Source: Candidatus Omnitrophota bacterium
Lineage (GTDB): Bacteria > Omnitrophota > Gorgyraeia > Ghiorseimicrobiales > Ghiorseimicrobiaceae
Length of the DNA: 64,000 nt
NCBI GenBank assembly: GCA_030681595.1
Contig: JAUXSB010000033.1
Span: forward strand, 12,223 to 76,222
Reading direction: 5' to 3'
How positions within the stretch are numbered: position 1 is the first letter of the stretch; each line of letters begins with the position of its first letter. The notes under the pieces are model-generated. The model was given only the letters and a program-made list of their open reading frames with translations, made no database searches and was not told the origin of the DNA. Below are positions 24,001-45,000 of the stretch, piece by piece. A program made the translations under genes and the position numbers.

Positions 24001-27000
24001 TCGCCTAAAAGAGAAATAATCTTACCCATTTCTACTTCAATATATGAGGCGCTGCCTATCTCAGAAAGCTCTATATTCAATTCTTGCGCCCTTGCCAGAT
24101 AATTAAAGGCCTTTGCGTAAATTCCGAGTTTATTATTTAATTTTCCGAGTTTAAGATGTATATCCCTTTCAATTTTATCCATCAAGTCCATATCATTAAT
24201 TAAGCGATAATAATTACCCCTTAAATTCCTTAAATGGCGCAGGCTTTCCCGATAAATCTCTTCGGCCAATACAAGATTATCTCTTGCTTCATAAACATAA
24301 GCCCTTAAGGAAGCAATGATGACATTGTAGATAGAATTTTTGCCTGTCTTCGCTTTCGCGATGATTCTTTCCGCTGAATCTATATCATTATTTGACATAG
24401 CGCTATACGCCTTTCCCAACAAATCAAACAACCTCAGATTACGCAGGCCTATAACGCTCTTATCAAATTTTCTCTTTATCGGGCTGGAGTTAGCTTGCGG
24501 CGGGTTTTCTTTATCTTCAGGGATATTCTCTAAATAGAACCTTAAATTCTTAGGCACAATCTGAGACCCGCCGTAAATGTTATCACGAATAAACCGTAGA
24601 TAAGACTTGTAAAAGACATTCCTTACATCATACAAGGAAACACCTAATACATGCGCCAGGCCTGGAATAGGGCCTATACCCTTAATGAGAAATTCGCAAT
24701 CTATATATCTTTCATAATCTGGATCGGGAAACCAACTTTGTCTTGCAAAAGTTTCAAAATCGCCTACGAATTTTATCTGAATTTGGTTATTTTGTATTAG
24801 AAGGCGTAAATTCCCTATATGATGGTCACCCCCAGAATCGAGCTCATGTCCCGTGTAGCCCAAAATATGGATAACCGCTGTAAGTTCTGCTGCCTGTTTA
24901 ATAATAATCTCGTTTAATTCGCCTTTTTCTAAATTTAACTCTTTCGTTAAATTGTTAAGGAACTTTTGCGATAGAAAATTTAATCTTTTCCCGTCTTCAT
25001 ATTCGAAAGCGATAATCCGTAAAGGGCATTCCAAGTTGAATTGTATTTGTTTTGAATAAAATTCATAAACGCCTTCAGCAAACTCTTTATGATAGAACGG
25101 CTTAACACAATATCTATCGTGAGGAAAATGGCTTAGAATATCTAAAGATACATTTTGACGTTCCTTGATAAACACTTCCCGTTTATGTAATTTTTCTCCG
25201 GGGATTAAAACTTCAAACGCAAAATTAATATTATCTTCATTATCAAAGCTAAAAATTATGTGACGGCGGAAAGACTCTGTGATAGGAGTTATAAAAAGAT
25301 TGCGCCCTACCTTAAAAATTATTTCTTCATTCTGCGCATATTCAAAAGGAAAACAGGAGTAATTTTGCGTCAAATCATAAGGATATGCCCTTCGCAATAA
25401 AGTTGATAACTTAAAAAATTCCTTTGCATTTTTTTCATCTTCAAAAAGCACATTGCATGCATCTTGTATAGTATCTATATCTGAAGATATGAAAAACTCT
25501 GTCGCCAACAAATTACTGAAATTCATATTTACCGGCGAGGCGGAAACATTAACAAGGAATAAAGAATAAATTACGGCTTTGCCGCTTCTGCTTACGCGGG
25601 CATCAAAAGTAGAAAAGACGAGCTCTTCAGGAACATAGCCGTCCTTTATTATGCCCGGACAATATAAAATAAAATTTGCTCCGGGCCTAAGATTCTCGGC
25701 TAATTGATAGAAAAATTCATCTTGATCCTCCAGGCTTCCGGCTAAATAATAATAAATTACGTCGAATTTACCGATATCCGCCTGTAAACCATTCCCGAAA
25801 GATCCTAAGAATCCGTAATCCTTAAATTCCGGCGAAAGCGGCGCCACCTTATCTCTATAAACTTTTTGCGCGTACTTAAATACATCCGGATTGCTTTCGT
25901 ACCCTGTTACTTCTGCGCCGAGTGTTTTCCAAATATACAAGTTTCTTGCATCGCCGAAACCAAAATCCAACGCTACTTTATCCGGCCCAACGCCTGCCTC
26001 TAAAGCTAAATAAATTAGATCAAGCATGGGTGCCGGTATAAATGGCCCTTGGCTTGGGTTTTCTACATCATCTATGACCACGCGCCGATAAGATTCATTC
26101 CTATCCAGCTCATTGAACGTTTTCATCAGCATATTTAACAGTTTATTCTCTTGAGAATTCTCAACGAAAGAATGATCCGTTAGGGGTGAGCCAGTAGCGA
26201 ATTCTGAAAGATTCAAGTGCCACAATTCTACCTCTCCGCCAAGACGGAACTTGATAAAACCGAATTTTTCTTTTTCAAGCAAGTGCGACCTCTCTAATTC
26301 CTCATCACTTATAAATAAATTTTTAAATCTGACTTGTTTTATCTTAAATTTATCCCTATAAGGATTATGGTAATAGCGCCGCAGGCTGCCTTGGTCAATC
26401 TCGCGATGCTGTATTTTGACTAATTTTCTTGGCTTGGCATAAAGATCACGGATTCCAGAAGTTTTAGCGGCTTTGATAATCGCGTAATTTAAATGGTTCT
26501 CCCATCCGCTAAACTTTTCCTGAATATCCTTAATCCTGCGAAACGCATATGAAGGCTGCACTTCTTCAATCAGCACTGAAGGCGTCTTCTCAACGCCAAT
26601 AAGAGATATGGCGGAAAAACCGATAGTTCCCGGCGGTACTTGAATCCGCGTAGTTGCCGCTTCATATTCCATTGCCCTCATGTAGTCTTCTATATCGGAA
26701 TCCCCGGAATAGATATTAAGATGAATTTCTTCGGGGAAAGCACTCAATGCCTCTAAACGAAAACCCTTTGAATCAAGATAGCCGCCGGCCACTTCCTCAA
26801 TGTGCCTTATAACCCGATGATAAAGCTCTTTATGCTTTTCGTAATCTTCATCATGTGTTGGTGAAGCACTATTTTCGCCCTCCATCTCTGAAATTAACTC
26901 TCTGGTGAAATTATTACGCCGCCTCCTTATGTCAACAAAACTTCCTCCGTTATCTATATATGTGTTTATTAAAGAACTCAAGGGCGAACTGCTTATCTGC

Positions 27001-30000
27001 TCTTTATATACCTCGGTAAACCAAGAATACGGATGTTCGGCACAGATTTCCCCTAAATGCTTCTTGATCTCTTCGCTAATAGCCGCATTCTTCAGCGAAG
27101 CGGAAATAATCTCGGAAAAGATGAATTCTCCCCAAGGCTGCCATAATTCGGCGCTGAATGTCGGGCTGGTCAGACTGGCCAAAAACTTCTTGAGGCCCGT
27201 TAAATCAGCTCCCTTTTTAATAGCCGCTATATTACATGTCAGGATCTCAACATAACCTACTTCATAAATGCTGTCTTTTTCCGCCCACTTTGCCATTGCC
27301 CAGGTAATAACCGCAGGATTATGTCTAGCGTTATTCTCTAAGATTTTTACTGCCGCGGGATTATCCAAAATCATGCCGACTATTTTTTCAACGTCCATCT
27401 CTGTAAACATATCCGGGTATCTCTTTTTTATATTCTCAAGCAACGCCACCCTATCAAAGACAATATTATCAATCCAATTTGCCGGCCGCGACGCTTCCGT
27501 TGCCGCGCAAAGAAAATCAAGTATCATAAGCTTGTTTATAATATTAACCATCTGTTTTTTTCTTCTGGGAGACAATTTATTGTAATCCGGGTCATTTAAA
27601 AGCAGATCCTTACAGGTGCCCCCTTTAAGCAAAAAGCGGTGGTGGTTACGTATCGCAATCCTTAACCTTAGGGGGGCTTTAAACTTGAGGTTGTCTAATG
27701 TGTTTTCTGATTGAAACGCATGCTCTATCATTAAATCCTGCAACAAAGGATCATCGTATTCCAGCTTGCGCGGTGTCAGAATAATAGAAAGGTATTTATG
27801 ATTAATACTTTTGCCTACGTCGTGCAGCCGTGCCGCAATATCAAGCAGCCTGAACTCGCTATAACTTAAACCCAATATGCCCTTAACGGCGCCTAAAAGC
27901 TTAGCCACATTCTCAATATGTTGCAGAGTAATAAAATCATAAAGCCCTAAAATATCGTCCATTCTTAAAGAAGAAAAATAATTTGCCCAGCCAACCAGGC
28001 GTAAATCCCTCATTTTTGACTTAGTGTGTTTTAGGGCCTGGGAAATAACAAAGCTTATCTTTTCCAGCGCGTCAGAACCTTTTTTGCTAAGCGGGCTTGA
28101 GCCATGTTTATCCTTAATTGGAAGCGCTTTCAATTTAGGCAAAATAAAAACGGGGCGGGCAAATTCTGAAAAACCAAGAGGCGAACTGCCATTTTGCTTA
28201 GACTTAAATTCCGTAACGAACTTACTTGCTTCCTCGCGGGCAAGAATAAGGTCTTTGACTACCCTTTCTCTATCTACATTGGCATAGACCACCTGATTTA
28301 CGGCATGCTCAACAATCGCTTTAAATTGCTCATCAGAAATAAAGCTAAATGCCTCTAATATCTTAATGACATACTCTCCCTCTTTCTCAACAAACGGCGC
28401 GTAATTCACTATATCGGGAATAACGATATTTTTGCCCCAGACATGCACGAATACATGGTCCTTTAAGAAGTCTTTTACTATTAAATCCAACGCCTTTAAA
28501 CCATGCATAACCTTCATATGTTCGCTATCTAAATGCTCGCTCGCAGTAAGATGTTTATGCTGGGAAGAAAATGGTAAAACAATGTAGGGCAAGCTATCGG
28601 GCTTAAGATGATTGATATAATGGCTCTTTTTAACAGGAATGCCCAATAATATAAGCAAATCTTCGATAATCATATGCGCCACAAGGCGCTCGCGTTTTTC
28701 CGCCTGATGCAGGACAATCCTGCCTTCCGGATTCATATGCCTTATTTCAAATATAAGATGGCGCATCAGCCTGTAAATGCTTAAATCATCCAAACTCCTT
28801 ACCTGCGTTACCCTGTATCTTCTCTTTAATTGCTCAGGCGTCAATTTACTAATTTTAGCCTTAATTTCTTCCCTATTATCCTTTTCAATATTAGGATAGA
28901 TGGAAGAAGCGCGTAGCAGCAAAAATATAGACTTAAGCCACTGCTCAACGCTTAAAAAGACAAATAAGGCAATATAAACAAACCGATATTTTGAAAGAGT
29001 TACTAATTTCGTGGAAATAATCTTACGCCCATTAATATATTCGCCTGTTTCTATCGAACTAACTGTCGAAAGCTTGGCGATTTTATAAATCTTTCTTTGC
29101 AGCATAATGGAATGCAATCTTGCCTTGATTCTGTATAATTCTTTCATAAAGCGGTATAATTTTGATTTTTCATCAAACCATGCCTTTTTATAGAAACCGG
29201 GTATTGTTTTCCTCAAAAATCCCCAAATTATGCCTCTCTGCGCTTTTTCTTCCAGATATGCCTGAAACTCCTTCAGATTCAATTTATCATTGTGGTCTAA
29301 GAAACCCCAGAATTCGCCTGTTCCGATAATCTGCTGGTAAAACCTTTCTTTTATCGCGGCATCTGTTATTCTATCCAAGTTATCCATATATTTAAGAAAT
29401 TCTATGACGGTTCCATAATATATGCTCCTCTGCTTCTTTTCACTGAGCCCATAAAACTTAGAGAGGCTGTCTATCCTGTCGCCGTATTTAATGATAAGCG
29501 CGCCTTCGTTTCTGCTTCTTGCTAATTTTATAAGATATATTATGTCTCTTAAACTTTCATTCCAGAGATTGCACCAGCTCAAATCCGGCTTGGTAAGAAG
29601 CGTTACCATCTCGGCAACTTCACTGCCGAACTTATTTCTTATGTAGTCTAAGGTATAATCCGTATCCTCTAAGACATCATGGAGAATAGCCGCGATAATA
29701 GTATTTTTATCTTTAATTCCCAGTTCATTTATTATAAATATGGCTAAGCCTATAGGATGAACGGCATAAAATGCAGTCCCGCTCTTACGTATCTGCGCAA
29801 AATGCGCCTTTTTCGCCAATTCACAGACAAACTTAATATCATACATATCATCTTGACTAAACTTAAGATTATGCTTTTCTATAGTTTCCATTAATAAAGC
29901 TATCATTTCGTCTATGGTAAGCCGCATCCCTCTTATCTTTGCTAGGGCATCCTCAAAAGAGAGCTTTACTGAAACGCGCCTGAAATCTCCGCGTGTCTCT

Positions 30001-33000
30001 GCCCAGTTAATAAGAAAACGCGAGATAATTTTTGTTGATTTATCCAATGCCTCTAAATTACTCTTGGCTTTTTCTCCCTTAGCTGCCTCCAGCGCAATAT
30101 TAACAAACCTAAGCGTCTTAATTAACCTGCGCTTGTATAGTATTCTTGTAAGAGCAGGCACTTTTTTATAAAGAGCGTGGCTGCCGCTTAAGATAAGTTC
30201 TAAAATGAAATTCCTGTATTTAATCATCGCGGCGTCTATGGATATATCTTTCTTGTTGTGGCCCAAGTTATAAAGGGCATTCTCTACCGTCCCAAGCGGA
30301 ACAGCGTCTCCGTAGTATAATCCTATAAAGAATAAGACGCGGCGCGCACGCACGATATCAACCCTTGAGCCTACGCCCCTTAAATTACTATTTTCGGCTT
30401 CTTTTATTAATCTTTGCAGAGGCGCAAAATTCCTATCTTCAAGATTTGTAAATATGTTAATAATTTTGGTTATGCTAGCAATATCGGGAATGCTTATCCC
30501 TGCCGGTTTTAACAATTTATTTAAACTACCGTCCCGATAGGACTTTCTTAGCTTATCTACCGAAGAGATGATATTTTCAAATTCTATATGTTTATCTTGC
30601 GAAAGAGGCGAATTAGCGGAACTTTCAGATAATCCCTTTAAAGATATTTCATAATTTAATACTAAATTCAACCATTTGTTGTATTCTTTCGCCTGTTTAA
30701 TCAGTAAAAGTAAATCATTCTCTGTCTGAGTCATTTCTTCAAAAAGTCCTTCAAGTCCGTTAATAATAAAGTAATCTTCCAAAACTCTAAAGATCCATTT
30801 ATTTTTGCCGGATATTTCGGCTATCGCACCCAGGATATTACTTCCCTTGCTATCCTTATCATACAAACCAATAACCTCATCTAACTGATACAGGCCGTCA
30901 GCATCTTTAAACTCCATCATTTTTCCGCTTAATCCAAACAGCGGATCTTCCTTATCCTCAAGCCGCTCCATAATTCTTTCTATGCGCGCGACCAGATAAC
31001 CGAAGAAGATATAGCGCTCTTTCTTTGTTATTATTTTCTTAACGAGCCTAACGATTTCACTTCGCTGTACTTCTGATAGAGCACCGATCACCCCTGATAA
31101 ACCTTCAGAAACCATACTGTTAAATATATCGTCTAATTCAATATATGGCCCTGCCTCTTCTTCGTTAAGCTCAATCCGCCTTAAAATATCTCTAAGCCCA
31201 TCAACATTTTTCTCCAAAATGCTCTCTTTTGACGGCATTGCCCTTACCTTAACTTGCGCTAAAGATAAAAGTTCTTTTGCGTAATCTAATTTACGGATAT
31301 CCTTCGCTTTAACTTTGCCCTCTTTCTTTTTCTTCTTATTTATCTCTTGCAGCTTCTTTTCAACTATCCCTTCTAATACTTCTGCAATAGCCGGCCAGTC
31401 TGCCGCAAGAACACCAAAAGCCTCTAAAAAGGCATGATATATATTTTCATCCTTTATATTATCAACCGATATCTCCAATAAAATTACCCATTCAGCTTTA
31501 GATTCCACCGCGTTAAGCAAATTCGTAAGATACGCTGGATAAGAGGCTATAATTTCCCTTATCGCTTCTTTCGCTTCTTCCCTAAGCCTGCTTGCATCCT
31601 CTGCCTCTTTTGTCTGCGCCACGCGAAGTGCGGATAAGGCCAGATTGTTGTACATGCTGCCTTCTTTGACCCCCAGCTTCCTTGCTAATCTCCAGTGCTC
31701 AAGGCATTTTTCATCCTCCAAGCCAAAATATGCATTTCCTAAGAGAAACTGCAGATCCGCGCTTTTGGTATTTATTTTTTCTGCTTTTAAAAGCTCAACT
31801 TTTGCTTCCTCATATCTCTTTAAGCTGATAAGGCATCTCGCCAAATAAATTAAAACATCAAATTCACTGGTTTCTTTATCGCCATATTTATTCTTTATAA
31901 ATATCCCAAACTGCTCTAATGCCTTATCAAACTTACCCCAGTTATAATACACACGGCTCAACATGTTATATAGGAAAGATTCATCGGGATAAAAGCTGAT
32001 TACTTCAAGAAGCGTCCGTTCTGCCTCTTCGTATTCTTGCTTGTTATAATGCAGGACAGCCCTGCTGTCTGCCAGCTTTATCTTGAGATCATCTATTAAA
32101 CCTGTTAAATCCGGTGTTAATGTTTTGGCTTTCTCCAAGGCTATTTTAAAAAGCTCGATAGATAACTCATAGCTTTCTTTGAGATAAAAATATTCCCCCA
32201 TTTTGCCTATAAAAACAGGGATGAGGCGCGCATCTTTAGCAACTATTTGTTCTTGGATGATTACTTTTTCCACAGCATCTGTCAGCGGATCGCCGTTCTT
32301 AAGTGCAGACTTTATTTTAGCGGCAAACCCTGCTATCATCCGCTCCATAGCCGCCTTCTTCTGGTAGTCGATACCTAACATTTTTTCTGCCTGCTTTTTA
32401 GCGTTAGTGTCCATCGGCCCGCCAGAATGACATTGTCGGGCTGGCGAGGCGGCAAGAAATTCCTTGACGCTGATAAATTTATCAATGATATCTTGAGTAA
32501 TTTTAAGATGTAAATTTACTTCTTTGGTATAAAAGAATATGCTAGACACGCCCTTCTTCAATAATTCCATCCTTATCCAAGTCACAACATCTGCCTGAAA
32601 CTCAGATAATTCGCCAAAAAGCATTTTTTCTTCATATTTTTTAAGATTGCCCCTAATGAGGTTAGCTTCTTTTAGGATATCTACCCTATTATATTTCTGA
32701 AGGAGAAATTCTTTTATAGGCACATAACCGTATTTAGGTAAATTATAGGTATCAACCAATATCCTATCCTTAAGGTTGGGATCAAACTGCATACGCGTAG
32801 GGCAGATCAACGACTGGGTATTATATTTATCCGTGGCGCGAGTCCAGACATGCGCGCGTTTTTGACCATCATAAATAAAATATCCGCCTTCAATAATAAA
32901 ATTGATTTCGGGGCTGCCGCCACCTATTATGCCGGATATTTCAGATAACGCAGGAGTAAGTATATTGTTAAAAGCAGCGCATATCATTCCCTGCTCTAAA

Positions 33001-36000
33001 ATCAATTGGTCAGCCTTACTTTTATAGACTCCTCTTAAGTTTTCGCTGACTACGCCCCAAATATCCCGTCCGTATTTGGTAAGAAATTTTTTTATAATTA
33101 AAATGGCCCTTGGCTTAGCGCGCCTTCCTATCGCCTTATTCACAAGGGGCGAAGCTGATTTTCCTGTAAGGATATTCTCTATTTGCGTAAACAGGGCATC
33201 TACCTTCTCGAAATTTATTTCGCTATTATTACTTAATAAATCCCTTGCTATGCCTAAATTAACATAATAATCCTGCGGAGATTTCTTGATCAAATAATGG
33301 ATATAGTTCAAAAATCCTTGGTCGCCTTTAAGCAGCCTCCTAAATGAAACCGCCGCCTTCTCAAGGATATCTTTACTTCTGTTATCATTTTTATATCTAT
33401 TTATGCTCTTAAGAATTAGCTGCTTCTTTACCAGCCTTTCCTTTAATAATTTCCAAAGTTCTGTAAAGGCGAATACATCCTCTTTGGCGCGAGCAAATTT
33501 AGCCAAGACATCAATGGCATATCGCTGATAAAAACTTTCTTTGGGGATAAATGCGCAAAGTGCCTTTATTAATTTCTTATATTCATCTTCACTTACTATG
33601 ATATTATTTTCTCTTATAGATTTTATTAAATCATGAGCCTCATCTAATAGTTTCTTTCTTTCGCGTAGCGAGACAATTAGGGGATTTATATCATTTAATT
33701 CCCGTGTTAGGCCAAAAATCTTTTTGGTTATTTCAGATTTTTGGTCTGGAATGTTGTTAGATCCATAATAAACATCTTCGATATGCAAACGAATTTCGTT
33801 GCCTTCTTCGATAACCCTAATTTTATAAGGCGGCATTATTTCGCCTTTTAAACGCGCCTCAAAATAAGTGCGCCGCAAAACACTCCGATAAATCGCCCAC
33901 AGTTCTTTGAAAGTTTTTTCATTTAAGCTCGCATCATTGGGATAATACTCTAGCAGCCACTGGCGTACCTTGATATCGCACTGAGGTTCCCATCCGGGCT
34001 TATGGTCGGCATAATAAACAGTTGCCTTTTCTATATTTTTCCCGGCTAACTTTTCCTCTAATCCCTTTATAATTAGTTTTCTTAAATGCCGCTTTACGCC
34101 GATAAACTGAAAATCAATAGGAGAAGAGCCGCCTTTAGCATTAACGTAAAAAATTAGAGCGTAAAGAGAGACGGTGCCCACCGGCTTTATCCCGTTAGAG
34201 AGCGATTGTACCCCACCAGCCACGGAAGGTAATACAATCTCTTTATGCAGCTTCTCTCTAACGGGACACGCCCGCCAGAACGACGTAGTCGGGCTGGCCT
34301 GTCCGCCAAAGTATTGATGGCGGAGAGAGGTCAACCATCTGTTTAAATCCTCCTTACGCCCTAATTTTAATAGAACATAATTATATGAAATTACATCCGG
34401 CCCGGCGCGCAGTTTACCTGATTCAACCAAAGCTCTACCCCTCTGCCAAGCAATGATACCTACGGCGACATAACCTAGCGGCCCGCCTGACTCCCGCCCG
34501 ACCCGCCAGACCGAAGTCGGGCTGGACGACATTCTGTCGGGCGCGGTCATTCGGGCAGGCGAAGCAGAAATGCCTGAATTAGTTTTAAGCGCTAAAGCTG
34601 TCTTTAAAACTTTCTTTTGGTTTTCTTTTTCAAAACCTCTATACAGGAAGAAATCTTTTATATACCACGCTACCATTTCATAATCTGCTGTGCCTTCTGT
34701 ATCCCTAAAAGACCCATCAATAGCACTTGTCAACAGCTTAATATAATCTTGGCCTGGCCAATGCTTACTCAATACGTAAACTAATATTTGAGTGGATGAA
34801 TTAAATAGTTTTCCTATTTTTTCATCGAGGTCATTAACTGCCTTTTCATCTCTAGGCCAGGCAAGCTTTTTTAACATATCCCTGCTATGTAGATAATAAT
34901 CTATTGCCTTACCCCAAACCCCTCTCTTTTGATAGATCTCTCCCAGATATGCTAAAATCTGGGCGGTCATCCTCTTATCGCCGACTCTTTCTCCTCCGGG
35001 AGCTACTATATATAAACTTTCCATAAACGCTTCTTCCGCCTTATCTAACTTATTTCTCTTCAATTCAAGGATGCCTCTGTTAAAATAGCTTTTTGCAAGG
35101 CCTATCCTATCCCAGCCATGTTTTCTCAATTTAAGGCTCAGGTCAGAATATATTTCTGCCGTATCATAATCTGTGAGGTTTGTGAAATGCGCCGCAAGAC
35201 GGTTATAGACCTTTGCCAGCATACGATTATCGCCTATTATTTTAAATATGTCTTCGCTTATCTTTAAGCTCCTTTCGTAGTCTTCTCTTGCCTGCTCGCT
35301 CTGCCCTAATCTATCGTATAAGTCTCCCCTGCGGAAATAGCTGTTTGCCAACCCCTCTAAGTTGACGACATCTCTGATATCTTTTGAATGAATGGTAAGT
35401 TTTTTTCTTATATCTATTGCTTTATTAAAGGCTCTCTCGGCTTTATCAAACCAGTAATGCCTTTTCATCACCCTTTCCTTCTCTCCCTTTACCATATAGA
35501 CAACGCCTAAATAATGCTGAGAAAGGACAAGGCCAAAATTTGCCTCTATATAAATAAGGTTGAGGTCTGTGCGGCTGATTATACTTTCCCAGAAATAATT
35601 ACTTAACATCAGGTAATCTTCCGCTTCATCTAACCTCTCTATATCCAGATAAAAACTGCCAAGTGTACGTAGTGTCTTAGCAATCTCTAACATATCTCTA
35701 ATATCTATTGTTATCGAGTGATAACGGACTATTGAATTTAAGGCATCTTTTACCGCAGAGCCCTGAAGCTTAGACTCCACATCAGCAATATTAATTGCCA
35801 ATTCCAAACTATCCAGCAGCCAACTTTCCGCCCCTTTAATCTCCTTTGCGTCTATTATGTTCCCCCTCAGCCACTCAATGATGCCTTTATACTTCTTGTT
35901 AGTACGCTCAAGCCTGCGGAATCTATGCCTCTGAGCAATCTCAAGAGCCCCTGTAAATTTTATGTTTTCTTCACCCATGATACCCATAATATTTACATCT

Positions 36001-39000
36001 GCCTCGTCCAGATATCCGGTACCCATCAATAGGCGCGCCTCTTTAAGCAGATTTTCGCAGATTGGGCGTTCATCAGGGTTATATTTCGCCTTGCGGAAGT
36101 CTATTAGCAGGTTACGAATATCATTTCTGTATAAATTTATCGCTTTTTTCAAATGCCATATCGCCGTATAAAGTTCAGCCAGGCCGGCGCTGGCAAGATA
36201 AAACACAAACCACTCCTTATTCCTGTGGCTTAGCGTGCGGCTCTCTATAAAATATTTTTTCGCCTCTTCCCAACTGCCTTGCCTCCATAAGCTCAGTGCT
36301 CGAGTATAATATGACATAGAGGAAACCGGCTCGTTAGCTTCAAATTTTTTCCTGCTAAAAGCCTTAAGCCTCTCTGCTACCACATGCCATCTTTGCTGCC
36401 ATGCCCATAAGGCGCACTGGATATTTAATAACACCTCTTCTGTGTCTATACCCTGCTTTTTTAGTTTATCTGACAATTTACTAAACCACTCATTAACTAT
36501 CCTGTGGTTTATAGCATCAATATTTTCTCTAGTGGTATCCGTAATCATTTTTTTTATCCATTCCAGTGCCTGTTTGGCGGGATGCGCCAAAAGGAAACCT
36601 ATGCCTAAGGCGACTGCGCACATTAAGGTAATCGCCTCCTTGTGGTCAAGATGCATGTGCAGAGACCCTGCTATCTCTATCAACCTATCAAAAGATACAA
36701 CATAATGTAATCCCGCCACCAACAAAGACGTTAAAACTATATGGGCGCCGTATTCAGTAATTATGCCTGCTGCATAATCGACTACGCGCATGAACAGCCC
36801 CTTTGCCCGATGAGAACCTGTTTTCTCTTCATCTCTATGTTTTTCTAACGCATCCTCGAGACCTGATTCATAGAAGAATAATAAATCCTCTTTATATTCC
36901 TTACTCAGCTCCTGACGCATCCTTTCTGCGCTCTTTACAATTTTACCTCCTTCTTTATGCAAGAATATATGCAAAGAGGTATTCTTTTCCCTGACTATAT
37001 CTTTATTCCTTATGATTTCAGAAAAGATGCTGTCTTTGCCGCTATAGCCAATAGCCAGTAAATGATAATTAGACATAATGTTCTTTAATAGGCACGTCTT
37101 GGCAACAGATAACCCCTCACCCTCCATTCTATAGGCATTGTATATTGAATCAGGGTTAGTAAGTGTGCCGTTAAGCTTAAATATCAATATCTTTTCGCCT
37201 CTTGCCTGGGCAAAACCGCTCTCTTCAACCTCTTTATTAAATTTCTCTATTTCCTCATCTGTTGCGTAAACCTTAAAGTCTCCGACTTCTTCTATTGCAT
37301 CTCTAAAAATACCAACCCCTTCCACTACTTCTTCTTTGTATGTCACTACCTGCTTGACTTCGCTTAACCCTTTATCTTTTAACGCCTGCTCAAGAAGCGT
37401 ATGGATATTGGTAGTAAAGAATAGGTTCATTTCTTTCCTTTTAGCTCTTTTGGCTAAATCAAGATATAAATCGCCTGGTTTTATCAGCCGCCTGAAGCGG
37501 GTTTTAAAATTATCCGAGTCAAAAAGCTCAGTCAATCCCATAATCCCCCTGCCAAAAGCGGTTATAAGCAGGCTATAGAAAACATCCGGCGGTAGATCCT
37601 TAGGACATTCAATCCCCATTTCAGTTGACACCAACTTCAAAAATCCTCTGTAAGTAAGCATGCCGCCTCCGCCTGCGCCTAAGAGAACGCCCATCTTACT
37701 TTGCTCGTTAAGCCCTCTTAATCCGTTACCGCCTGCCTTATTCAGCTTGTTATTGAATAACCGCTTAAGTGGCGAGCCCACGGAGCTAGAATCACCGTCT
37801 TCCTCTTCGCCGGATAAGTTCTTTAAGATGCCCTCAATTTTTCCAGCTTCTTTCTCGCCGAATAAATCCGTTAATATGGCTTCTTCTGGTGTTATTAAAT
37901 CCGGGAGGAACTTGCGGGCGTTCCGCCTTAATTCTCGTAAAATATCCACTGTCTTGCCAAAGGCATCTTTAATCACCAAGTCATCTTCTTCTAAATAATT
38001 CGGTGAATATTTGTCTTCGGCAAAATAATACAGAGCTTCTTCTGCCACGCCTTTATCTAATTCCATAAGCTTGCGGATAGAAACTTCAAATTTAGCATTA
38101 AAATGTATTAAGAAAAGATAAATCCTTACAAGGCTAAAAATTGCTGCCCTCTTATACTGTTTTACATGCCTAAATAAAATATCTTCAAGATATTCCTGTT
38201 TAGAAAGTTCTTCTTTGGCGCCTTTCTTTAATAATGCCTTTTGTTTGGGTTCATACAACCTCTGATACACTCTTGCGATTACCTCTATCAAATTAGAATC
38301 TAGCCCACCGGATAAAGCCGATACCTTATCAAGTATAAGCCTAATAATATTAAATAATTCCTTTACAGGATAAATAGAGACAAGCTGTTCAATGATTTTA
38401 TATCTCTCTACTGTTATATATTTTTCCACTGCCCGCTCAATAGAACTTAAGGTTGCCAAATAAGCGGATTCAAAGTCGGGATTTGTTGTCAGCGCCCCAA
38501 AGAATGTCCTCCAGAATAAATCCTTACCTAAAGCTAAAGAGTGTCTTTCTAAGAATCTTCTGAAATCGCTTAATTGCTCCCTGCTAAACTGCGCCTTGTG
38601 TTTCCCTAAGAATTTATTTATCTCTTCTTTGGACACGGGGCTAGCGGATTCCGCTTTAGATGAAGAATATAAAAGATTAACCGTTACCCTATATTCATCC
38701 GATATATAGCCTTTACCGGGGATTAAGCCTAGAATTTGCTCTATATATTCTTTTCTAGTTAATTTAGTAGAAGCCTCTTTAATCTCTCTTATGCTCTTGG
38801 AGACAACACCTACTTTATCCCTTGTAATGTTCTCTTTATAGCCGCCATCATACATGTATAATTTACCGCCCGTTCCTTCGCCTTTTCTTGTTTTTCCCCA
38901 TCTTTCTTCTTCCTTTGCAAACGCATAAACAAATTTTATAAAGCCGGCTGGCCCAAAATCAATTCTGCGCGCGGCATAATTTAAGCGTATCATCTTATTA

Positions 39001-42000
39001 ATGTCTAACCACTTAATTAAGACGCTCAGATCGCCCAATTCGTGAATTTCACGAAGCGCATTATAAGCTTCTCGATATTGCTTAGCATAATCTCTAGATT
39101 TTCCTTTGCTTAAGTCATTGGCGGTATCTAAGAATGCTTTTTCTAAATTATCTTCTTTCCCCCTAAATTTATCTATTGTCTTGGCTAAATCAAAGGTTTT
39201 TTCTTTCTTTATCACCGCGCCCATAAAACCATAAAAGAGGCGCACCGCCGGCCAATATTTCTCAAGCACCCTTAACTCTTTAACATTACCTAAGTCCAAT
39301 ACATAGAGGATATTGCTTATGCGCTGATTTGTAAGCGTGCCTATTCCTCTCGCCGCGTAATAAATAAAATCTAAGATAGCGGCGGCCTTAAAATAACGGT
39401 TTACATTTATTAGGTATTCATTATCAATAATAAGCGTTTCAGAGTTTTCGCCGCTTAAATAAACGATAAACCCTATCCTGTTTAAATATTCTATCAGTTG
39501 GCTTTCGCTGAATTTGGATATATTTTTTTCGTCAGTTATAGCCTTAAGCATATCTTTGATAAACTGCCGGCTCAACTGGGCAAGCCTTCGGGAAGCAGTA
39601 AAATCAAAACTCTTAATTCGCCCGCCTGATGCCTTATAAATTGTAAAAAATAGCTCAAGCACCTTTAACGTCTCTTTATCCGTTAGATTTACAAAGACGT
39701 CCATAGCATGATCCATCTGAACAGTCTCCATAAATTCCTTAAAATCACTATCATTTCTTATAGCTATATCTAACACGGTGTATTTTGCGTCAATTCTGGT
39801 TCCGGAAACATCAGAAGAAAATCTTTTTTTGCGGTGTTGGGTAATAGAAAATTTCCTTAAGTATTCCAAATCGAGCATCTTAGTCATAAATTCTGCCGCA
39901 GAGTTATTAAAGAAACTGCCGTCTCCATAAGAGAGGATATCCGCGGAATTAACTATTATCAAAAACTTAAGTAGCATTTGTCTTTCATCTTCGCTATCGA
40001 ATTTATCCAAGGCCTTTAAAACCGTATTCTTTGGTCGTTCGCCGCCTCCGATTCCGCCAAACTCCGGATGATACTTAATAATAAATACCGCCCACTCAAT
40101 TACCTGTTTATCGGTAATACCAAACCTGCCTAAAACCGCCGGGATAATCTTTGCTCCTCTGTCCTCATGGGCTCCGCCTTTAATTATATCCCCGATATCA
40201 TGCAGGAAAGTAATGGCATTGATGATAAAGTAAATTTCGGATGTATTTTTCCCCTGCTTTTTCATAAACCGGACAATATATTCCAAGGCATCAGAGAGCA
40301 TGTCGAAATATTTCTTATCTATATTAAGCATGCCCTGCCTTAAATTTTTAAATTCCGCATAGTCTCTCCTGAAAAATATCTCCGTAAATTTATTCAATTT
40401 AATAGAATGTTCTAATATCGTAACTTTTGGTTCTTTTGTTTTTACCCTCTCCAGGAGCTTTAGGTAGGATAGCGCCTTAAACAGAATTCCTTCCTTAGCC
40501 TTTGCGTTTTTATATAGTTTTTCTAATTCCTCACCTGAATTTAAAGTTTCAAGTGCTTTCTTAAGTAAAGATATGGCATGCGGGTCAGAATCAAAATCAG
40601 GTAGTCGCTCTTCTTGCGCAGATTTATCTTTTAGCCTGAATTTATTAGTTATCTCGTGAATACCGCCATCGCCTGAATCAATTACGCGATGGACACGGCT
40701 TTCACAGACAAGCGTAATGATAAGATTTATATCTTCTTCCTCAATATCAAGTTTTTCTAAAAGCGGCAATAAAAGCTGTTTAGCGCTCTCTGCATCATCT
40801 CCCAAGAGAATCCTCGAGTAATCTCTCAACAGGCCGCTTAAGAAAAGGATTTTCTTAATCATTTCATCTTTGCCATGCTGGCCTATATCACTAAACCGGT
40901 ATTGAAGCCTTCTTAGTAAGTCACGATTTAGATTATCCTCTCCGGGAAGTTTGCGCTGGTTAAAATACTCATACCAGCTGTCTTCATCTACAAGGCTCCC
41001 ATAATGCTCAAGGAAGCTCAACTGATTAGCGGATTCATTAACCAAATCCCAGCGGCTATTTTGCGCCCACCAAAAATCTGAATGGTCGGTGATGAAATCC
41101 AAAGCGCTGATATTTGTGTTCTTTATAACCCAGTCCCATAATTCTCTGACATTGCCTCTCTTCCAAAATATCTTAAAGTCGTTTATTTCTGTATCGGGAA
41201 TTAATTCGATTCTCGCCAAGAGCGCGTTCAACAAGCTTAAACGAATCTTAGAATGTTCGCTGTCCTTCGGCTCATGCCTCATATATTGCGTGAATGCCTG
41301 AATTTTTTCGTCATATCTGGCTGCCCTTAAAGCATGAAAATAAACAGTCGCGGCCTTGGCGTATTCGCCTCTCTTGAAAAATTCATCCGCCTCGCCAAGC
41401 AAGAATTTCATCAATGCCTCTAAATCAACTGTTTCTGTTTTATCGCCGCTCGCCGCCTTTATATAACGCACCTCATCTACGATATTGCCTTTTACCTTAC
41501 TCTTAGGCTTGCGCGGGTCTTTCTCTATTTTAAATTCCTTATGGATAGCCGGATACTGCCCTTTATTCTGCCTCAAAATCACATCCAAGAAAATCTTAAA
41601 GTTCTCGTTATTTGTAAGCGGGCTGGCGGATTCTCGGGTTGAGACTGCGGCAATAATCGCAGCGCCTATGCCCGAGCCATCATGAGTCAAAGTTAACTTA
41701 ATCCTGCCTGCCTTTTCAAAACCAAATATTTCTACGAATGCTTCTTGCATCCGCGCGGCAAAACCGGGGTATTTTTCAAAAAGTGAACCATCTACGGCAA
41801 CCGTATGCCTCTTGGATAAACGCGGGTCGATTTTGGTAAGCGCGCCTGCTAACGCGGCAGTTGCTATACGCGCCGCACGGATAGAAATAATCTTACAGAT
41901 TTCTTGTATCGCCTTTCTTTCTTCAAAAGTTATGCCTTTAATCTTAAGTTTACTTAGCACTGTATGCGCGCCCCAGAGATTAGAGGAGCCATCACTTTCT

Positions 42001-45000
42001 ATCTTTGCCATATCTTCTGTGCTTAAGCTGTGAATCTTTCTAAGCCGAGACGGAATCTTGCCGCCAAACAACAGGCCATTAGAAACAAAATCTAGTAAAA
42101 TTAAACGGGCAAGTTCGCCTAAATATTTACCGGAAACCATCTTCTCTTCTAAATGCGAACCGCGGTTTTCTGACTGTTTATCTAACATCTCATCATATTT
42201 AGTCTTGGACAGACTCTTATTAAAATTCCCTGACTCCATATTGATAATCATAGATTTACCGGAATATGGACCGATTTTTTTCTTAATCTTGGATGCCTTC
42301 ATCCTTGCGGACATATTTGTGCCTGTGCCTAGGATTAATGCTATATCGCAACGCAAATCAAGATAAGCCTTTGCTACCTGTGTACCCGTAGTATCATTAT
42401 CCAAAGAAACAATCTTAACATTATTAACGTTCTGACGTTTTAATGCCGCCTCAAGTAAAACAACCACGTCTTTGCCTTTGACGCCTTTTGCCGTAAAGCC
42501 TTTACTCCAACTCATAAGAACACCTTGGTCAATAGCTGTCTGATGAACGGCAAAACTAAAGGTATAACCTAAGGAATATTCGCCCGAATAACCATGCTTC
42601 CTTAAGAAGCTCTTTAGGAACTTAGCTAAGGCGTCAAATAAAATATTTCCTGTCTGGGTAATATCTCTCTTCTTGAGCCTGTATTTCTCAACTATAATTT
42701 CCGGGCCGGAAGAATCGCCTTTTAACTCCACCATCAGAACGCGGAAGTTCGTTGCGCCTAAATCAAGCGCCAAAAATAGGCCTTTTTCTTTACCTGTGGG
42801 ATTATCGACATATGTTGGAAGCATCTTTAATGAGCTTTCTTCGCCTCGCAGGCCTTTTTCCATCTCCTTATGGAACGCCCGCATAATATCCCTTATGCCT
42901 TTAGGCGTTAAACCAAAAACGCTTCTTAAATTATTTAACTCGACTTCTAATACATTGTTCTTTAATCCAAGCGGGCTGGCGGATTTTCCCCGGCCTGTTT
43001 TCAGATGCTGCCTTGCTTTATTGAGTAAAAACTCATCTGTTCGTTCTAATAAATTGTACTCATCGGTATCAAATGCATCCGCGGCATCTATGGCGACCAC
43101 AGGCCCATAAGAAGAAACCAGCATATTAGGCTCTGCTGTAATTCCATACTTTTCCAGCTGTTGCATAATAAAAGGGGCTTGCAGATTATATCCAGTTAAA
43201 TACTTACCGCCTACAGCCTGCATTGCGTAATTAAGCCTGCCGGATTCATCTATAAAAAGACCATAAAATTCCGGATAAATGCCGATCATGCTAAGTAATT
43301 GGGCCGCATAAATTTCTCTTTCCGCATATTCATAGCTCTGACGTTGCGAAATAACCTTTACGACTACGGGAAAATTCTTTTGTTCAATAAAGCTTAGGTA
43401 TACGCCATCGTTACGCATCCCGCCGCAAGAGTCATCGGATTCAAGCCGAACCGATAAAGTATCAGCCAAAGAAATAGGCCTGTCCATTAAATCGCTAATT
43501 CCGATAATATCTGCCTGCAGATCTTCCGTACGCCATTGATGCATAACCCAAAACTTCTTGGGGTCTTCTGCTCCGGTTACTTCTAAATGCCGAGTATTAA
43601 AAATATACCTACCTTGACCCGGCCATTTTGTATTAATTTCGATACCGCTTTTTTCTACGCCAAATTCAACCAGGCGCTGGATAATTCCGGAGGAGCTGAC
43701 GCGGACAGCAAGCATGTTTAAAAAATCTTCTTTACGTTGTGCGGAAGCTTCATCTTTGAATCTAAGCGGCGAGGAATTGTTTTGGAGGGAATCGGATACG
43801 GCGGAAGCGAAAAGTGTATTATTAGGATAGGCTTGCCTAAGATATTCTAGGTAAGTTTTACTTTCTCTGCCAAAGTTATTATGCCTGAGTGAGGCGGCGA
43901 AAATCTTGCTCAAAATCGCCCCTGCCTGGCCGTCTCCTAAAATATCTTCTATTTCAGGGTCTGTCAGAGAGCGTAGGAATCTTTGCAATGCCTTTTCATC
44001 CCCTGTCTTTTCTATCCTTTCATAAAGCGCGCCCAAATAACGCTCAAAATATCCGTTGCCTAGCTTACGCCAGCCGGAAATTGTCAGGGCAATAACAACG
44101 CCTTTTAACCTGTTGTTTTTGTCTAAAAATCTCTCTCCTCTTTCATGATTTAAGAGCTCATAAGCTAATTTCTCGGCATTCACGAGGCGGCGCGCTTCAT
44201 ATGCCGACTTCTTCTCGTACTTTCTTACTGACTCTATAATATCTTCAATGCCTAAGGAGCCGTTTTTCAGCCAATGATACGGCCTGAAGGTTTCGCTGGA
44301 GGCACTGATGATGTCGCAGACCATAAATATCTCAAGCAAATAGCGCACCTGCCTCTGGTCATGTTTTGACATCTCCTTGTAAATATGGTCATTGAATATA
44401 TCGCAAGGCTTATGATGATAAAGTATAATCAGCCGAACTTTATCCGAAATCATAATGCCTTTATCTATCAAGCGCGTTATTGAATAATGCGGATGCATTA
44501 TCCTTATATCTTCTAATTCTTCTTCAGCAAGGTCTTCGGGCGAATTAACCAGATAAATAAGTTCTTCTTCTGACTTGCCTATATCGTGCAGTATCGCCGC
44601 CCTTTCCAATATTTCCTTTGCTTCATCATTTAAGCCCCGCAGCTTTGCCGCAAGCCGCACAAGCCAATGCACATTCTTTACATGCATCCGGGTATGGAAA
44701 ATAGTAGAAGGATATAAATCAAGCAACTTTTCCCGTTCAGTCCCGCTCAGGGGGCTGGCGGATTCAGGCTTAGCATTAAATCTATAAATATAGCTATTAT
44801 CTGGAATATCCGGGTAATGCGGCTCATTAGATTGATGAACATCTCTAATTTTTAAGCTGCTATTCTTAAATGCGTCTGTCAATGCTTGTTCCATTTCTTC
44901 ATTTATCAGATTTATATCATCAAATCCTTCTGAACTTGGCGGCCTTATCCAGCTTGTCCAGATAAACCCGGCTTTGCTAGACTTAAGCCTTGCCAACCAA

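Follow-up and report, generated by a model that had tools for sequence, protein, structure and literature searches.

The question raised by this locus is how a family of hairpin-forming repeats comes to lie, in all three codon phases, inside a coding sequence that is never interrupted. To our knowledge, the longest bacterial ORFs are the giant genes of Omnitrophota. The stretch of DNA analyzed here (64,000 nt; the window) is in its entirety a single minus-strand ORF with zero stop codons in frame, open at both ends and encoding at least 21,332 aa as a chain of multi-enzyme modules. Pfam domains along it include methyltransferases, GFO_IDH_MocA, HD, hexokinase, HATPase_c, TPR, SIR2_2, GH77, M48 and PHP. 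As the frame has no stops across the 64,000 nt, every copy of the repeat in the window lies inside one giant ORF.

Five intact hairpin elements were identified in the window, together with one outer element that is split by a nested copy (Table 1). The 17-nt core, CCACCAGCCACGGAAGG, occurs exactly at 9564, 34213, 48991 and 61580 and with two mismatches at 9814; chance alone would give 0.03 matches, compared with these five. A covariance model run on the window detected five intact cores and no more, each of them on the minus strand, with only noise below them. An initial annotation of this DNA had described 75-bp hairpins bounded by terminal inverted repeats (TIRs). Its sequences, core positions and TIR pairs (34191/34254, 48931/49078 for the outer and 48966/49032 for the inner element, and 61555/61618) were all present, and the nested stems that it anticipated were recovered by folding, with z-scores of -4 to -7 for the window elements. 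Its four exact cores stood, but it had missed element E. The length that it gave, exactly 75 bp, varies with the point chosen as the end of the stem, P1 being 1-2 bp longer in elements A and C, and the only length measured against a reference is that of the nested copy, where 80 nt plus a duplicated CACG add a net 84 nt, or 28 codons. The duplicated CACG flanks element B-inner at 48961-48964 and 49045-48 on the plus strand (CGTG on the sense strand). Without this insert element B-outer measures 75 nt, and it corresponds to repeat families D5 and D6.

Table 1. Coordinates of the host ORF, the hairpin elements and related sequences in the window.
Feature	Coordinates	Strand	Covariance model (bits)	Description
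Giant ORF host gene	1..64000	-		Codon first bases at position mod 3 = 2
Element A	34190..34266	-	48.3	P1 TCCCGTTAGAGAG/CTCTCTAACGGGA; P2 ATTGTA/TACAAT; core 34213-34229
Element B-outer	48931..49089	-		Subfamily of A; halves 48931-48964 and 49045-49089, split by nested copy
Element B-inner	48965..49044	-	40.8	80 nt (CCCCGTTAGAAAG...CTTTCTAACGGGG) within the B-outer hexaloop
Element C	61553..61631	-	45.5	P1 GCCCCGTTAGAGA/TCTCTAACGGGGC; core 61580-61596 read LPWLVV
Element D	9537..9616	-	33.9	Different P1, CACTGCGGCAGA/TCTGCCGCAGTG; core 9564-9580 read FRGWWV
Element E	9794..9861	-	27.6	Third P1 type, CCGGCGC/GCGCCGG; core 9814-9830 (two mismatches) read SVAGG
Degenerate core	61484..61525	-		Sense CTTCTTC...CGTGGCAGGAG; repeat family D1
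CACG + 27-nt mini-hairpin variant	34267..34297	-		Abuts element A

Element A, translated as CPVREKLHKEIVLPSVAGGVQSLSNGI, folds on the sense strand with -37.4 kcal/mol (z -5.4). Together with the abutting mini-hairpin and flanks (~34160-34330) it forms a composite that is homologous to an intergenic composite at another locus, L041. A 24-nt mini-hairpin (61495-61518) breaks the degenerate core immediately 5’ of CGTG. Element D coincides with inverted repeat I25; the inverted repeats I1 (59377-59467) and I11 (5394-5505) do not belong to the family. All window copies are translated through within the stop-free minus-strand frame, and the three core phases initially described (SVAGG, LPWLVV and FRGWWV) were confirmed there: the core is read as PSVAGG at 34213 and 48991, LPWLVV at 61580 and FRGWWV at 9564. 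Over the giant-ORF copies among the matches listed, the three phases were represented 33:19:13.

The hairpins are a structure-defined, non-coding palindromic repeat family with a wide distribution in Omnitrophota. On the sense strand their outer helix, P1, measures 8-19 bp and is followed by an A-rich 5’ bulge, often ending in AAAGG, and by a helix P2 of 5-8 bp; in the apical module, CCUUCC pairs with GGUGGG around the hexaloop GUGGCU. Sequence conservation is limited to this apical module, whose loop is invariant over genomes of 32-60% GC, and P1 and P2 are kept through compensatory and G·U changes. With the covariation alignment anchored on the loop only, paired cells amounted to 85.5%, compared with 69.3% in shuffles (0 of 500 shuffles reached the observed value), and the covariation score reached 0.488; shuffles gave 0.199, and sliding the partners gave no more than 0.21. 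Because a whole-element MAFFT alignment misaligned P1, this helix was judged by stem-length controls. The family is defined by the apical stem-loop CCUUCC-GUGGCU-GGUGGG and not by the TIR: the loop is conserved, whereas P1 differs between copies even within one genome, with three unrelated types in the window and seven in a single array at locus L084. The idea that the element is defined at the nucleotide level is upheld by the three phases and the covarying stems.

The folding strand is the sense strand, since it is there that the G·U pairs appear. P2 and P3 together contain 98 G·U pairs compared with 19 A·C pairs, and where P2 meets P3 two U·G pairs are almost invariant. Uninterrupted pairing runs in P1 had a mean of 12.6 for the sense and 9.4 for the antisense strand (median 8 at random control positions), with G·U accounting for 115 of 818 sense pairs and 23 of 610 antisense pairs. 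In the orthologous copies at loci L012 and L110, all five stem substitutions keep pairing through sense-strand G·U. Base composition (A.31, C.18, G.24, T.27) was rejected as the source of the excess, as it predicts a G·T:A·C ratio of ~1.2:1 where ~5:1 was observed. The restriction of G·U mismatches to the sense strand points to an entity that is single-stranded and strand-specific. T is frequent in the 3’ flank (62-72% T at +1 and +2) and equally so in the 5’ flank, and copy C alone passed the tail rule of our intrinsic-terminator scanner. At Rfam gathering thresholds the window gave no matches; by E-value, the best match to 34150-34320 was a chance miRNA hairpin (E = 8.9).

Scanning a genome collection placed the element in at least 42 Omnitrophota loci, with the core as the loop of a two-stem hairpin. 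Among the matches listed, 55 of 57 structure-supported copies lay inside very long stop-free ORFs, a count that describes a sample of matches to the exact 17-mer and not a genome-wide census of copies inside and outside giant genes; within this sample the family is almost confined to giant ORFs. The 59 structure-passing candidates among the matches listed comprised 53 sense copies in stop-free frames of at least 3 kb (42 loci), two further ORF copies in short loci that are open throughout, two intergenic copies co-oriented with their neighbors and two chance matches in high-GC genomes; antisense copies numbered zero. The intergenic copies, at L041 and L097, lie just downstream of ordinary co-oriented genes, as does a weaker third match at L033. 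We rejected the stop-codon filter as the cause of the orientation bias, as it predicts only 60% sense copies and gives a probability of ~4e-13 for 55 of 55. Copies at L044 and L083 are 93% identical at unrelated sites, and the viral contigs scanned contained no match to the core. The family is apparently new to the literature: we found no prior description in the literature searched, where the core string turned up only as unrelated primers; the Omnitrophota giant-gene preprints searched do not mention hairpins, palindromes or MITEs, and a search combining Omnitrophota with palindromes returned only unrelated papers.

In giant ORFs that bear a recurrent peptide, [SA]SP[LVIM], the elements cluster beside it. 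This peptide delimits the protein modules, standing at their ends. Three of the five window elements (C, B-outer and E) lie 3-5 aa downstream of the strict motif, C at 3 codons from SSPV and E at 5 codons from SSPL, and element A follows the variant ASPT. Across motif-rich loci, 16 of 21 elements were within 20 aa of [SA]SP[LVIM]. Of the roughly 47 junctions in the window, only ~6 have an element, which is therefore not required at each of them. The initial annotation had attributed the residence of these repeats in coding sequence to a lack of intergenic space; the copies do lie in the ORF, but they are clustered at module junctions, and the same family occupies intergenic spacers at L041 and L097.

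The insertion of copies into one another bears on how the family spreads. Nested copies occur at an identical hexaloop junction in the window and at L015, L097 and L101 (80+4, 80+4, 83+4 and 80+4 nt, respectively). The bond is sense CCUUCCGUG^GCUGG, and CGTG is duplicated in all four insertions, one with a single mismatch. At one and the same junction, L015 carries Russian-doll nesting compared with a single copy in its relative L052, and arrays of 4-7 hairpins occur. The nesting and the copy-number difference between related genomes argue for mobility, although the CGTG duplication at nested sites could also have arisen by site-specific recombination or template switching, and the seven-copy L084 array looks more like duplication with compensatory drift than seven separate insertions. 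In 40 primary copies, target-site duplication was not above a permuted control. No close relative of the window was found in the genome and metagenome collections searched, and blastn against 117 fetched loci gave similarity confined to the elements. The metagenome collection held no relatives of the region around element C and no match to B-outer without its inner copy, the predicted pre-insertion allele. Around element A a protein database search brought up nothing but generic TPR proteins, with no orthologues of the giant protein among them, so an empty site was not found there, and the collections searched gave no clean empty site for any window copy.

Taking these observations together, we consider the family to be, probably, a strand-specific, structure-defined mobile repeat of the REP or RPE kind, tolerated as stop-free insertions of length 3n at module junctions. 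The element would multiply or move, new copies entering a resident hexaloop at the one fixed bond with duplication of CGTG and the remaining copies landing in AT-rich DNA. Within giant ORFs only frame-keeping, stop-free copies would survive, and so would add 22-30 arbitrary residues to the protein, whichever of the three phases is used; persistence as stop-free, length-3n insertions, as initially claimed, does hold inside the ORF. Copies would pile up where such peptides are tolerated, beside the [SA]SP[LVIM] that closes each module, making the junctions the polyprotein counterpart of intergenic spacers. We infer that the junction bias reflects tolerance and not need. Propagation would occur in trans, through a strand-specific, structure-recognizing enzyme acting on the single-stranded sense strand. 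REP/RAYT and IS200/IS605 suggest, as analogies, that this strand may be the lagging-strand template or non-template DNA; alternatively, it may be the transcript. An HUH-type version of this step is suggested by analogy and is put forward only tentatively; no candidate mobilizing enzyme was identified, and Pfam assigned no Y1_Tnp domain on the window ORF.

Known small repeats share parts of this description. Rickettsia palindromic elements (RPEs) are small palindromic repeats that lie in frame in coding genes and are translated as tolerated extra peptides (PMC10969869), and the likeness lies in this in-frame insertion into an ORF that is translated through. RPEs, however, are ~100-150 bp long, conserve a family peptide in one frame and are scattered over many ordinary genes, whereas the Omnitrophota repeat belongs to a different phylum, is read in three phases, conserves a hexaloop stem and not a peptide, has covarying stems, is sense-only, nests in its own loop and is concentrated in giant ORFs. 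REP, BIME and REPIN sequences are short, abundant, non-autonomous hairpins that are conserved in structure and arrayed in transcribed operon spacers; REPs are thought to be moved as single-stranded DNA by an HUH (Y1) enzyme and can stabilize upstream mRNA. They are extragenic, are found in either orientation (REPINs being inverted doublets), have a conserved GTAG at the foot of the stem and are linked to RAYTs. The Omnitrophota repeat, in contrast, lacks GTAG, its variable foot often being GCCCCG, keeps one orientation and conserves its apical loop, and most copies are translated, with two or three intergenic (L041, L097 and L033) among the matches listed. PATEs, derived from IS200/IS605, insert strand-specifically without terminal duplication, through hairpin recognition and next to a short specific target. 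Single orientation, the lack of primary-site duplication and, to a degree, the fixed CGTG loop site recall them. A PATE, however, carries a pair of dissimilar subterminal hairpins and has its defined 4-5-nt target at just one side, whereas the present repeat is a single symmetric three-helix hairpin whose nested copies have CGTG on both sides, and TnpA was not found. The very small hairpin repeats of Nostoc and Anabaena described by Elhai et al. in 2008 reportedly insert into each other at fixed positions without target duplication; they are 21-27 nt long, cyanobacterial and mostly intergenic, and a frame constraint or sense-only orientation is not known for them.

A possible account, though one we do not favor, is that the giant transcript uses the hairpin as a cis-acting RNA element, selected by the host and kept at junctions, with copying between junctions secondary. 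In a 60-to-400-kb mRNA it might block 3’ exonucleases or mark sites of RNase processing. Ribosome pausing that allows co-translational folding or cleavage, translation-dependent termination, and the binding of an antitermination factor by the conserved hexaloop are further possible roles. Such a role would suit the sense-only orientation of all 55 ORF copies and of the two or three intergenic copies among the matches listed, the confinement of G·U to the sense strand with its near-fixed U·G pairs at the P2/P3 junction, the adjacency to the module delimiter, and the AU-rich flanks on both sides with a U-rich tail at copy C. The pairing preserved by five of five stem substitutions between L012 and L110, the loop invariance across the phylum at 32-60% GC and the near-confinement to giant ORFs fit host function as well as they fit a mobile repeat, or better. 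The scarcity of elements at the window junctions (~6 of roughly 47) speaks against it, as do the variation in copy number between related genomes and the absence of a matching Rfam family from our searches, and Russian-doll nesting and arrays of 4-7 hairpins are hard to reconcile with function. We are doubtful of the proposal that the hairpin is a dedicated junction signal of giant polycistron-like ORFs, acting with the [SA]SP[LVIM] delimiter, and not merely a tolerated parasite. If it is true, the hairpin would be a conserved structure of the RNA or of non-template DNA and would organize the expression of 60-to-400-kb genes, for example by segmenting or stabilizing transcripts, pausing ribosomes at module ends or coupling transcription to translation, and self-copying into junctions would have helped to build and reshuffle the modular giants.

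The initial annotation likened the repeat to a miniature mobile element. Mobility is supported by the nesting and the copy-number differences, but three unrelated P1 helices in the window do not agree with a MITE defined by its TIRs. The classical form of this idea, a deletion derivative of a DDE insertion sequence that is recognized by its TIRs, moves by cut-and-paste or copy-out-paste-in and leaves a target-site duplication of fixed length, is in our judgment improbable. Perfect terminal inverted repeats of 12-14 bp within the main subfamily of the window and CGTG duplication at the four nested insertions are what it predicts, and the abutted ends, GGGG-CGTG-CCCC, would presumably resemble an IS circle junction. 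The unrelated P1 helices among copies of one genome (the window and L084), however, and primary copies without duplication above the permuted control are not, and a double-stranded element with TIRs would not be expected to show strict single orientation and sense-strand G·U. None of the 117 loci showed a parent insertion sequence.

We think it quite unlikely that in-frame shuffling of modules between or within giant genes uses the hairpins as attC-like sites of single-strand recombination or as recombination hotspots of another kind. Integron attC sites are imperfect, variable palindromes that fold from a single strand of one polarity, are co-oriented and bound exchangeable units; their conserved part is the hairpin base, not the loop. 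The hairpins share the variable length and sequence, the conserved one-strand fold, the co-orientation and the position at module boundaries. The homology of L012 to L110 falls off abruptly ~10 codons beyond the element, directly after SSSPV, and the homologous blocks common to L012 and L078 start or stop at the motif; these breakpoints, however, match the peptide motif and not the hairpin, which is missing from most junctions. In attC sites the R and L boxes and extrahelical bases are conserved and loops vary, and the sites lie between cassettes, not in ORFs, and depend on IntI; no integrase is known for the present system. The attC order RYYYAAC...GTTRRRY is opposite to the GTTAGAG...CTCTAAC seen here in one subfamily only, others having GCTGCGG, CTCGGC and similar sequences. 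The Chi octamer of E. coli, GCTGGTGG, is likewise part of the sense core; it has six occurrences in the window, every one on the sense strand and five within elements. We rejected a Chi-site reading, as variant cores (GCAGGTG) keep pairing and lose the octamer, and the extra GCTGGTGG (15325) and CCGTGGCTGG (62790) are ordinary coding sequence.

That the repeats are paralogous segments of a protein motif or domain, such as SVAGG resembling a double-glycine processing site, is a reading that we give almost no credence and that, as an explanation of the family in general, is in effect refuted. In its favor, the PSVAGG phase is used most often (33 of 65 copies among the matches listed), all seven L084 array copies share it, and C39 double-glycine peptidase domains are reported in giant proteins (bioRxiv 10.1101/2023.11.21.568195), but one nucleotide core gives unrelated peptides in three phases, conservation is at the level of nucleotides and base pairs with covarying stems, and copies occur outside ORFs too.

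For the study of mobile elements, the interest of the family lies in an unusual combination: a palindromic repeat in frame, with its identity borne by the loop, targeting of its own loop and RNA-like covariation. For Omnitrophota, it is a nucleotide-level landmark, almost specific to giant genes and strand-specific, that marks module junctions. The authors who described the giant proteins knew of no cleavage points in them (bioRxiv 10.1101/2023.11.21.568195); the hairpin and [SA]SP[LVIM] together give definite points at which to seek the ends of RNAs, pausing of ribosomes, proteolytic cleavage and breakpoints of recombination.

A single minus-strand frame runs without any stop codon across all 64,000 nt, which makes the window an inner segment of one ORF of at least 21,332 aa. 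In Pfam searches this ORF appeared as a string of enzyme domains unrelated to one another (methyltransferases, a GFO/IDH/MocA oxidoreductase, several HD domains, a complete hexokinase, HATPase_c, TPR, SIR2-like, GH77 4-alpha-glucanotransferase, M48 peptidase and PHP), a predicted composition that agrees with published accounts of multi-enzyme giant proteins in Omnitrophota (bioRxiv 10.1101/2023.11.21.568195; 10.64898/2026.06.07.730766). A short helix-turn-helix (HTH) segment weakly matched transposase-, resolvase- and LuxR-type families (HTH_38, HTH_23, HTH_7; E ~1e-5 to 2e-3), with no adjoining catalytic domain.

A window search placed the 17-nt core of the hairpins, CCACCAGCCACGGAAGG, exactly at 9564, 34213, 48991 and 61580 and with 2 mismatches at 9814, for 5 matches observed against 0.03 expected. 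A covariance-model scan of the window returned precisely the same five intact cores, each on the minus strand, the remainder being noise; an Rfam search of the window gave no match, and Rfam holds no family matching the element. The initial annotation had described 75-bp in-frame hairpins with terminal inverted repeats (TIRs), and the sequences lie where it placed them. It was also correct that the core is read in three phases. Its outer element at 48931-49089 is a 34191-type copy with a second element inserted within its core.

Repeat features of the window, with core readings translated in the frame of the host ORF
Feature	Position	Strand	Core	Core reading	12-nt terminal repeats	Remark
Element A	34190-34266	minus	34213	PSVAGG	34191/34254	
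Element B, outer	48931-49089	minus			48931/49078	split by inner copy
Element B, inner	48965-49044	minus	48991	PSVAGG	48966/49032	
Element C	61553-61631	minus	61580	LPWLVV	61555/61618	
Element D	9537-9616	minus	9564	FRGWWV		
Element E	9794-9861	minus	9814	PSVAGG		
Region of stretch AAATAAGAAAACGCTTTCAAAT	9617-9650	sense				upstream of element D
Mini-hairpin	61495-61518					directly 5' of CGTG of element core
Mini-hairpin	34502-34525					
Mini-hairpin variant	34271-34297					adjoins element A
Related mini-hairpin copies	52023-52046, 60054-60077					
Tandem array	23065-23146					
HTH segment	~2640-2740					ORF aa ~20419-20453

Scanning the GTDB genome collection (596 Gb) with the 17-mer yielded at least 117 loci, against ~70 chance matches by our own estimate; among the matches listed, those due to chance were recognisable as high-GC actinobacteria. 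At Omnitrophota loci, including some labelled 'uncultured Planctomycetales', the core lies between complementary arms whose sequence varies by locus (CCCGTTAGAGAG, CCCGTTGCAAA, CCGCTGGAAAG, GGCCGCTGCGG, GCCTCGGC, GGCTCCGG and others), with three unrelated outer stems within the window and seven within one 540-nt array of a single locus (L084). The family is defined by its loop rather than its ends, and the TIR does not define it. When 64 copies were aligned without gaps over 40 nt, anchored solely on the invariant CCGTGGC, 85.5% of cells in the named structure were paired vs 69.3% when shuffled (0 of 500 shuffles reached the observed value), and the covariation score was 0.488 vs 0.199 shuffled and at most 0.21 with partners slid. 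One pair, for example, varied as GC:24 AU:11 UA:8 CG:7. An independent MAFFT alignment, analysed with RNAalifold, gave the same helix of middle (P2) and apical (P3) stems, while the uninterrupted run of the outer helix (P1) had a median of 12-13 bp vs 8 at 400 positions drawn at random from the host ORFs. Diverged copies at four loci (L004, L017, L048, L084) retain only CCGTGGC[TA]GG, and their apical helix covaries, as where a U·U mismatch becomes A-U. Covarying stems around a constant loop establish the order on the sense strand, that of the host ORF: P1, an A-rich 5' bulge (often ending AAAGG), P2, a UA bulge, CCUUCC/GGUGGG and the hexaloop GUGGCU. Together with the three core phases, the covariation confirms the earlier view that the element is defined at the nucleotide level.

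The 23-nt stretch AAATAAGAAAACGCTTTCAAAT is 22/23 identical, synonymous sites included, between the window and a locus (L013) where it precedes both copies, in genomes that are otherwise unrelated. This suggests that the unit of the GCTGCGG-stem subfamily may extend ~35 nt 5' of the hairpin, encoding NKKT[LV]SN there.

Across P2/P3 of the 64 copies there were 98 sense-strand G·U pairs vs 19 A·C pairs, which compares the two strands because A·C on the sense strand is G·U on the other; base composition predicts a G·T:A·C ratio of only ~1.2:1. Two positions are U·G in 26/64 and 34/64 copies. In P1, G·U pairs made up 115/818 on the sense strand vs 23/610 on the antisense strand, with mean uninterrupted runs of 12.6 vs 9.4. 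In each of the five window copies, the sense strand was predicted to fold more stably than the antisense strand. Two orthologous copies (L012 and L110; flanks 91% identical, fold energies -41.9 and -41.7 kcal/mol) differ at six positions; of these, five fall in stems, where a sense-strand G·U preserves the pairing each time.

A structure-supported set (at least 6 of 7 P2 pairs, among the matches listed) comprised 59 candidates. Fifty-three, at 42 loci, are sense copies within frames that stay open for 3 kb or more, a further two lie in short loci open end to end, two are chance matches in high-GC genomes, and none is antisense. The other two are intergenic and co-oriented with their neighbours: one is flanked by a methyltransferase and a PilZ gene (L041), the other follows a 2,479-aa ORF immediately past its stop codon (L097), and a weaker match just downstream of a co-oriented ORF (L033) resembles them. 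Stop-codon filtering of random insertions predicts 60% sense, making 55/55 highly improbable (P ~4e-13). Core phases of giant-ORF copies split 33:19:13.

Mobility is supported by nested copies. Those in the window and at L015, L097 and L101 occupy the identical bond each time (sense, CCTTCCGTG / CCCC...GGGG / CGTGGCTGG, with CGTG on both sides), adding 84, 84, 87 and 84 nt, respectively, and this layout recurs in degraded cores at two further loci (L053, L109). The outer element at L015 encloses a stack made of one element's halves, two left and three right, and its own right half matches the single un-nested element of a relative, L052; as far as the SSSPV motif, which precedes the elements, the proteins of the two loci share 66% identity. 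Copies 93% identical occur at unrelated sites in L044 and L083; between them a T-A pair has become C-G, with full compensation. No target duplication was found at primary copies, which lie in AT-rich DNA: in the flanks of 40 elements, sense-strand T reaches 44-48% over 8 nt each side vs 27% background, and 62-72% at positions +1 and +2. Element C has a terminator-like U-rich tail. The T-rich flanks could reflect target preference, RNase E-like sites or conditional termination. The initial annotation had looked to empty sites, and none was found for any window copy because the collections searched contained no close relative.

Single orientation, one-strand folding and primary sites without duplications recall REP/RAYT and IS200/IS605, and the elements may move by a similar chemistry on single-stranded DNA. 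Where a gene runs in the direction of replication, its sense strand serves as the lagging-strand template. A constraint or function of the hairpin as RNA would explain the sense-only rule without every giant gene being co-oriented with replication, and fits the pairing kept between orthologues. A purely functional reading has against it that most junctions between protein modules carry no element and that nesting and arrays look parasitic. That the hairpin is a functional junction element of giant genes we consider possible but less likely than not. A classical TIR/TSD MITE fits poorly with variable arms and primary copies free of target duplications, a protein repeat with a core read in three phases, and an attC-like site fitted poorly when tested.

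The E. coli Chi octamer, GCTGGTGG, is part of the sense core in all five window copies; it occurs six times in the window, always on the sense strand and 5/6 in elements. A Chi site is a poor fit: variant cores elsewhere (GCAGGTG) lack GCTGGTGG, so the octamer is probably incidental.

The peptide [SA]SP[LVIM] occurs 47 times in the window's giant protein vs ~1.5 expected (roughly 1 per 450 aa), and its many synonymous codons mark it as a protein-level signal. Pfam domains fall between successive motifs: the hexokinase domain (aa 7021-7452) is bracketed by ASPL at 7006 and 7457 (window 42980, 41627), and HATPase_c ends at aa 5590 where SSPI starts at aa 5591 (window 47225). Homologous blocks of L012 and L078 start or stop at the motif, and that of L015 and L052 is likewise bounded by it. 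Between L012 (2797-2900) and L110 (reverse complement, 4576-4680), 91% identity over 2.9 kb breaks off just past the codons for SSSPV, 10 codons downstream of the shared hairpin, a breakpoint that suggests swapping of whole modules at junctions. The motif looks like a polyprotein's module delimiter or processing site.

The commonest phase of the core (phase 1) encodes (L/S)PSVAGG (e.g. window 34213-34229 and 48991-49007), the phase of 7/7 hairpins in the L084 array (1472-2014). This peptide resembles the double-glycine sites at which C39 bacteriocin-processing peptidases cleave. C39 domains are reported in such giant proteins (bioRxiv 10.1101/2023.11.21.568195).

A second nucleotide-level repeat is a 24-nt mini-hairpin (sense CCAGCCCGACTTCGGTCTGGCGGG), identical at two sites in different phases (SQPDFGLAG vs SSPTSVWRV). 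Two copies lie directly 5' of the CGTG of a hairpin-element core, related copies occur in opposite orientation, and there is a perfect 24-nt tandem array of 3.4 copies. Element A and its flanks are homologous to the L041 intergenic composite, minus the mini-hairpin.

Among published cases, the Rickettsia palindromic element, inserted in frame (PMC10969869), comes closest; it has a conserved peptide and one frame per family, whereas the core here is read in three phases. Neither the hairpin family nor the junction motif is mentioned in those giant-gene papers on Omnitrophota that were consulted, the core string was absent from any relevant paper in a literature search, and Omnitroph* + palindrom* returned nothing relevant; we found no earlier description of either. 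We class the elements as REP/RPE-like palindromic repeats with several unusual properties. They form a nucleotide-level, structure-defined, sense-strand-specific family, with copy-number dynamics that include self-nesting at a fixed loop position and, as initially proposed, survival in ORFs solely as frame-keeping, stop-free inserts. They also prefer junctions: elements C, B and E begin 3-5 residues after an [SA]SP[LVIM] motif and element A after ASPT, and, giant-ORF loci being either motif-rich or motif-free, 16/21 elements of motif-rich loci lie within 20 aa of a motif vs ~15% expected (our estimate from motif density). The elements therefore accumulate at what amount to the intergenic spacers of a polyprotein.
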